Assembly (NCBI RefSeq): GCF_003334335.1
Contig: NZ_QOWQ01000019.1
Strand: one strand, 5' to 3'
Source of the DNA: Escherichia coli
Lineage (GTDB): Bacteria; Pseudomonadota; Gammaproteobacteria; Enterobacterales; Enterobacteriaceae
Length of the DNA stretch: 64,000 nt
Both the position numbers and the translations under genes were made by a program. Below the pieces are notes generated by a model, which was given only the letters and a program-made list of their open reading frames with translations, made no database searches and was not told where the DNA came from. This document shows, one piece after another, positions 9,997 to 10,280 of this stretch (position 1 is its first letter; each line of letters starts with the position of its first letter).

Positions 9997-10280
9997 GTCA
10001 TCACCTTTACGATTCCAGTTTTCGTGAATTAATTAAAAACACGAATCACATTGTTTTATGAAAGTTACACAATAGTTAAGTAAAATCACAAATTTTGTAT
10101 GTTTGAACTGTGACGGATTTCGCACCCTATTTTTATAAATCATTATTTATCAGTGCATTAATGTTTTCCGCAGTTGCTATACAGATCGCATAGTTAACAT
10201 TTCGTTAAAAGATCCCTTGCTTTTTATGATTCGCGATTTAACTATTAGCAACAGAAATGTGAAACATCTGGAGAGTAGCG
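9997..10280. promoter_or_regulatory. Divergent paaZ / paaA promoter region
   Basis: A 284-bp AT-rich intergenic region between the divergently oriented paaA'-'paaK ORF and paaZ; the paaZ start at 10281 has a GGAGAG Shine-Dalgarno sequence. Confidence 0.6.
10011..10047. promoter_or_regulatory. Candidate PaaX operator (inverted GATTC-N27-GAATC)
   Basis: gattc at 10011-10015 and gaatc at 10043-10047 are separated by 27 nt, matching the spacing of the PaaX operator palindrome as I recall it; the site lies just upstream of the paaA start. Confidence 0.4.

Follow-up and report, generated by a model that had tools for sequence, protein, structure and literature searches.

The DNA analyzed here (hereafter the window, 64 kb in total length) belongs to a K-12-like Escherichia coli, probably of phylogroup A, and carries the remains of the phenylacetate (paa) gene cluster, in which a chimeric open reading frame (ORF) joining PaaA to PaaK is followed by paaX and paaY and separated from the divergent paaZ by a control region of 284 bp (Table 1). 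In a first-pass annotation of this DNA, the operon was described as gutted beside complete copies of paaX and paaY, and this description holds, since compared with K-12 a total of 7,328 bp are missing, comprising the 3' end of paaA, the whole of paaB-J, and the first paaK codons, while paaX and paaY are both of full length. The crossover lies within a shared TA dinucleotide, a hallmark of illegitimate recombination in one event.

Table 1. Features of the paa remnant and of its control regions (positions in the window; +, plus strand; -, minus strand).
Feature	Position	Strand	Description
paaY, thioesterase gene co-transcribed with paaX	6190..6780	-	TIGR02287, 377.8 bits (cut-off 319.6); DNA identical to K-12
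paaX, repressor gene	6762..7712	-	TIGR02277, 410.9 bits (cut-off 264.55); DNA identical to K-12
TGATTC half-site upstream of paaX (Px region)	7746..7751	-	Inside TATGATTC, the same TATGATTC composite as at Pz
In-frame fusion ORF, 727 aa	7813..9996	-	PaaA residues 1-292 followed by PaaK residues 3-437
Deletion junction	9121..9122		2-bp TA microhomology, paaA codon 292 (GTA) / paaK codon 2 (ATA)
Shine-Dalgarno AAGGTGA (GGTG 10005-10002) and paaA GTG start (9996-9994)	9994..10008	-	GGTG invariant in the alignment
PaaX operator of the Pa (paaA) promoter	10010..10048	-	TGATTC (10048-10043), 27 nt, GAATCG (10015-10010)
Promoter-proximal 15-bp PaaX box, AATGTGATTCGTGTT	10038..10052	-	0 mismatches (15/15) to the presumed consensus WWTRTGATTCGYGWT
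Putative Pa core promoter	10062..10091	-	-35 TTGTGA (10091-10086), 18-nt spacer, -10 TAACTT (10067-10062); from conservation
CRP-like site TGTGA-N6-TCGCA	10109..10124	+	One mismatch to consensus; centered about 61 bp upstream of the predicted Pa start
Second PaaX operator, paaZ (Pz) side	10227..10266	+	TGATTC (10227-10232), 28 nt, GAAACA (10261-10266)
paaZ, divergent gene under the second operator	10281..12326	+	TIGR02278, 1209.6 bits, above cut-off

Both halves of the fusion were recognized by NCBIfam models with scores exceeding the cut-offs, PaaA being covered at model positions 1-287 of 289 and PaaK at 1-422 of 422 (788 bits; cut-off, 646), and solved structures in the PDB match each half as well. 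In the RefSeq/PGAP annotation of genomes that carry this allele, the fusion is divided between a 'pseudogene' of paaA and a separate paaK of 428 aa starting from an internal ATT (window position 9099); this split is an artefact that conceals a continuous PaaA::PaaK ORF. From the junction through the paaK remainder, paaX, and paaY (9122 down to 5588, about 3.5 kb) the DNA is 100% identical to K-12, and eight positions differ across the 16 kb flanking on the paaZ side. PaaZ itself departs from K-12 by one residue (E616D, base 12128), a change private to the window strain. A structure of E. coli PaaX is available (PDB 8A39).

In the paaZ/paaA gap, the inverted repeat GATTC-N27-GAATC previously remarked upstream of the chimeric ORF is present at 10011-10047, reading GATTCCAGTTTTCGTGAATTAATTAAAAACACGAATC on the plus strand, with arms at 10011-10015 and 10043-10047 and the 27-nt spacer CAGTTTTCGTGAATTAATTAAAAACAC. 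It ends 13 nt upstream of the paaA GTG start, with the Shine-Dalgarno sequence in between, and its arms are complementary over exactly 5 bp, the next bases outwards (10010, C; 10048, A) being unpaired. The repeat is the single exact match to its pattern in the 64-kb window. Dinucleotide-preserving shuffles yielded a mean of 0.09 matches per window, with at least one match in 9 of 100 shuffles; the bare 5+5 repeat is thus weakly unusual on its own, and the case for an operator rests on context, namely position, extended matches, and conservation.

Taken with one further base on each side, the site agrees at 11 of 12 positions, and exactly in spacing, with the E. coli PaaX site TGATTC(N27)GAATCA as given in a review citing Kim et al. 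(2004) (PMC9493321). With repeat and spacing in accord with the published site, the PaaX-operator interpretation stands, and what had been called an operator-like palindrome can be named as the PaaX operator of Pa. The one departure from consensus is the distal half-site, GAATCG instead of GAATCA; K-12 likewise has GAATCG, also scoring 11/12, and there repression works. Furthermore, the control region is identical to K-12 at 283 of 284 positions with the operator unchanged, the lone single-nucleotide polymorphism (SNP) lying outside the repeat at 10216 (C in the window, T in K-12), where most other genera have C. The only other match to TGATTC-N27-GAATCA at one mismatch in the window (TGATTC...GCATCA, 38945-38983) falls close to the 3' terminus of an ORF of 481 aa (37608-39053) and, being inside an ORF and with about 0.14 such matches expected, was taken as chance.

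A 15-bp imperfect palindromic PaaX box common to Pa and Pz was reportedly defined by Ferrandez et al. in 2000, with a consensus that we take to be WWTRTGATTCGYGWT. A search of the 64-kb window for this sequence, allowing up to one mismatch, returned just two sites, 10038-10052 (-) at Pa and 10223-10237 (+) at Pz, each free of mismatches and each within this one intergenic region, where 0.29 sites would be expected in the whole window. Within the operator, a nested perfect inverted repeat (TTCGTG-N13-CACGAA, 10021-10045) was further observed, which constitutes an alternative symmetry in E. coli; in the alignment of 20 genera it is not kept beyond Escherichia and Citrobacter, being common to Citrobacter sp. 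R56 and missing from the other genera.

PaaX is released from DNA by phenylacetyl-CoA, not by phenylacetate; at Pz and Px it acts in competition with RNA polymerase, autoregulating Px through RNA polymerase exclusion, and at Pa it acts by a different mechanism (PMC9493321). Direct binding of PaaX, relieved by phenylacetyl-CoA, is reported for the identical K-12/W sequence in the same review (PMC9493321). In this context, the Pa operator of E. coli K-12/W shares with the window the half-sites, the 27-nt spacer, the position before paaA, the cognate PaaX, and the operator sequence itself; the difference lies downstream only, where Pa drives the PaaA::PaaK fusion and not paaABCDEFGHIJK. The Pa operator has already been characterized experimentally in E. 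coli, and the finding, although correct, is ordinary.

Promoter elements of Pa and Pz were assigned from conservation of sequence and are to be read as putative; a generic sigma-70 scan returned no convincing Pa or Pz promoter, with one weak plus-strand match that was no better than shuffles. From the candidate hexamers, the Pa transcription start would fall near 10055, and primer coordinates in an earlier study (-194 when counted from the start codon and -132 when counted from the transcription start; PMC3798270) correspond to a leader of about 62 nt and a start near 10058. The whole operator would consequently lie downstream of the Pa start, at about +8 to +46, that is, within transcribed leader sequence, past the -10 element and ahead of the paaA ribosome-binding site, in agreement with the review, according to which repression at Pa is not simple RNA polymerase exclusion. 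CRP activates paaA, and a 57-bp footprint of ArcA-P overlaps the CRP site and blocks anaerobic induction (PMC3798270); a CRP-like site with up to one mismatch was found at the equivalent position in 31/44 Enterobacterales sequences. The observation that the chimeric ORF begins with GTG, with no in-frame ATG upstream, is accurate, but this is the ordinary paaA start, used likewise in K-12, whose annotation begins at the same base. Indeed, GTG is the start codon in 18 of 20 aligned enterobacterial genera, indicating that it is ancestral for paaA and no peculiarity of the chimera.

While one operator had been noted at this locus, correctly for Pa, a second one on the paaZ side had been missed, which ends 14 nt before the paaZ ATG. 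Its TGATTC does not vary in any of the 20/20 genera aligned, and its distal half-site is degenerate (GAAACA or GTAACA). Both operators have the same proximal TGATTC, the same 15-bp box, and the same overall layout, the distal half-site ending 13-14 nt before the start codon in each case, so that Pa and Pz may be regarded as mirror-image layouts, a modest by-product of the comparison. The Pz operator differs by its 28-nt spacer, its weaker distal GAAACA, and a proximal half-site overlapping the core promoter (TATGATTC), where TGATTC overlaps the candidate -10 hexamer TATGAT (10225-10230); alternatively, TGATTC might sit in the spacer between TTGCTT and AACTAT. This overlap fits the RNA polymerase exclusion reported at Pz, unlike Pa. 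At Px, no good second half-site was found at spacings of 26-28 nt, the nearest candidate being GAATGA at N31. Moreover, a GC-rich hairpin with no T-run, GGCCCTGG-N12-CCAGGGCC, was observed at 7770-7800 (-), after the paaK stop codon and before the Px region.

The phylogenetic footprint was obtained from 80 paaA loci taken from one-genome-per-species contigs and classified by tblastn, of which 43 fetched loci with divergent paaZ/paaA were from Enterobacterales (PaaX, 54-91% identical, detected in 35/43), 16 with the same divergent layout were from Moraxellaceae (PaaX, about 39% identical, in 14/16), and 21 were from Bacteroidota, with no detectable paaX. Allowing up to one mismatch and up to 90 nt upstream of the paaA start, TGATTC-N26-28-GAATCA was present in all 44 Enterobacterales sequences, the window included, and perfect in 41 of them, its distance to the paaA start being conserved as well. 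At the same threshold, it was found in 0/21 of the Bacteroidota loci lacking detectable paaX and in 7/860 shuffled intergenic controls. As a by-product, enterobacterial PaaX operators are seen to tolerate spacers of 26 nt (n=3), 27 nt (n=15), and 28 nt (n=26), the last being the commonest. In the alignment of 20 genera, neither TGATTC nor GAATC varies, in contrast to the unconserved spacer that separates them; this is a classic protein-binding-site footprint. Further invariant blocks in this alignment were TTG (-35), TAAC-T (-10), GGTG (Shine-Dalgarno), and the conserved start codon. Among the Moraxellaceae loci, no TGATTC-N27-GAATCA was detected, the best matches having at least two mismatches. 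In many Acinetobacter and Psychrobacter loci, a recurring TGTTTC-N28-CAATCA-like element was observed about 217 nt upstream of paaA, which is possibly a diverged operator.

Related sites are known from other systems. The PaaX boxes at pac (penicillin G acylase, E. coli W/ATCC 11105) and at PstyA (Pseudomonas sp. Y2) are served by the same repressor and have, by the review's description, on which the likeness is based, a similar inverted-repeat consensus; they belong to other promoters or organisms, and the window has no such locus. TetR-type PaaR of Burkholderia, Thermus, and Corynebacterium likewise provides phenylacetyl-CoA-responsive repression of paa genes, yet it is from an unrelated repressor family, and its operator, ACCGACCGGTCGGT in B. 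cenocepacia, consists of a short inverted repeat with contiguous arms, unlike the site described here.

The exact deletion junction was found in 5 of 5,426 complete E. coli genomes, recovered from a pig in Japan (EC416), a human in Ecuador (LR-29-1), a vegetable in China (GDSC2BY4G), poultry water in Bangladesh (EEC_W5), and a wild bird in Pakistan (PEC1009), so that the paaA'-'paaK allele is documented here as rare and geographically widespread. The window adds one more carrier, the sixth, which is identical to none of the five and shows 6-11 differences per 23.4 kb when compared with any one of them. Across the paa remnant (about 6 kb), carriers have 0-4 substitutions each, several of which change an amino acid (R101L of the fusion, E616D of PaaZ), and no frameshift or nonsense mutation was found in the remaining paa genes of any carrier. 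Both half-sites of the operator are unchanged in the five other carriers; LR-29-1 has a T>C SNP in the operator spacer (10029), and in EC416 a C>A change at 10220 turns the Pz -35-like hexamer TTGCTT into TTGATT, which about half of the remaining genera in the alignment also have. On the other hand, 1,408 of the 5,426 genomes gave no match to the 6.5-kb query region, and other, independent partial paa deletions were identified in 26 genomes of the O145:H28 lineage, in A65EC, and in a group formed by LR-64-2, VE-F10, and PEC399. The O145:H28-lineage genomes were rejected as carriers of the junction, their deletion being different and smaller, with a gap holding paaE/paaF remnants and with paaK missing. 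In fact, paa gene loss in E. coli is readily recurrent and proceeds by different routes.

We are highly confident that the repeat is the canonical PaaX operator of Pa, left beside a paa operon cut by a single 7,328-bp deletion, as indicated by sequence identity with K-12, agreement with the published consensus, the footprint across genomes, the genes present, and the deletion junction. That it might be a functionless chance palindrome in AT-rich intergenic DNA has the shuffling results for the bare repeat in its favor, together with the fact that the 12-base pattern TGATTC-N27-GAATCA, when three mismatches are allowed, occurs at chance frequency (32 matches in the window against 30.9 expected), a count that is uninformative at this stringency. 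Nevertheless, chance would not hold both half-sites constant over about 20 genera with the intervening 26-28 nt left unconserved, nor would it give 44/44 Enterobacterales sequences against 7/860 shuffles and 0/21 loci without detectable paaX, or a repeat matching a published operator (PMC9493321); this reading is effectively refuted by the conservation pattern and retains a negligible probability. A different role, as an RNA hairpin acting as attenuator or translational control element in the paaA leader, could be envisaged given that the operator would lie in transcribed sequence and that the minimum-energy fold pairs both arms. However, this fold is no stabler than those of shuffles (-10.7 against -10.6 kcal/mol, z = -0.04), a 5-bp stem would have to close a 27-nt loop, the arms are invariant and not covarying around a spacer that varies in both length and sequence, and the same half-site recurs at Pz and Px at positions that overlap promoters, all of which makes an RNA element extremely unlikely.

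Another question is why the regulatory parts have survived. Selection could have kept the operator, paaX, paaY, paaZ, and the PaaK portion of the fusion for sensing phenylacetate with no catabolism, in a circuit where an active fusion ligase would make phenylacetyl-CoA and so release PaaX from its targets, with PaaY recycling CoA. If true, such a sensing-only circuit would explain the spread of the allele in a phylogroup-A lineage across hosts and continents, and it is in line with an in-frame fusion that retains a complete PaaK model and with an allele found in at least six strains, from five countries and several hosts, free of disabling mutations. Even so, an in-frame junction has a prior chance of one in three, the few substitutions over about 6 kb, several of them nonsynonymous, give no power to detect purifying selection, the allele is rare, and E. 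coli often loses paa genes in differing ways; we therefore consider a selected circuit improbable. The first-pass annotation had left the choice between a recent deletion and a retained function. The absence of substitutions in 3.5 kb and the occurrence in so few genomes favor the former, and a retained function is not needed. Thus, the parsimonious reading is that the regulatory parts survive because they lie outside the end-points of the deletion and the event is young on an evolutionary scale, selection not being demonstrable, as divergence among carriers is too small to separate it from lack of time.

Under the preferred explanation, i.e., a PaaX operator spared by a young deletion, the GntR-type repressor PaaX, according to the literature, acts on its operators to repress both Pa and Pz and is released by phenylacetyl-CoA, the product of the PaaK ligase. 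The half-sites TGATTC and GAATC(A/G) are 33 bp apart, center to center, which corresponds to about three helical turns and places both on the same face of the DNA. A single deletion across the 2-bp microhomology took out paaB-J and connected codon 292 of paaA with codon 3 of paaK without loss of frame; the control region, paaZ, paaX, and paaY, being outside of it, are essentially unchanged, leaving the Pa operator to govern only the PaaA::PaaK fusion. Judging from the sequence, PaaX presumably still binds and represses in the window strain. The operator is of little importance in itself, since its presence follows from where the deletion ended.

The consequences for carriers would depend on the fusion. 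If it still works as a ligase, it would make phenylacetyl-CoA from phenylacetate, PaaX would be released, and the fusion, paaZ, and paaXY would be induced; with paaB-E missing, however, phenylacetyl-CoA could not be oxidized, so that the circuit would be inducible and its inducer a dead-end product. The dedicated phenylacetyl-CoA thioesterase PaaI is deleted as well, and only PaaY, which hydrolyses several CoA esters, phenylacetyl-CoA included (PMC4498308), could recycle CoA. An inactive fusion would leave the cell with no means of forming the inducer, and Pa, Pz, and Px would stay repressed, i.e., locked off. In either case, carriers should be unable to grow on phenylacetate. After the deletion, Pa lies about 2.3 kb from paaX, and read-through from Pa into paaXY might matter.

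Beyond the paa remnant, the window differs from GDSC2BY4G by 6 SNPs in 23.4 kb, a 103-bp deletion in ydbA, and an IS1414 insertion. Positions 1-77 are the end of IS1414 (IS256-family) and have no match in the pdxI-ydbA intergenic sequence of five related genomes, which indicates that the element was inserted there in the window strain. The ydbA-type autotransporter gene (193-5859, -) lacks 103 bp near 5588 compared with K-12 and the five carriers; this loss shifts the frame and leads to a stop at 5497-5499, so that ydbA is probably a pseudogene here, and a second repeat-length difference in ydbA, of about 293 bp, restores the frame downstream.
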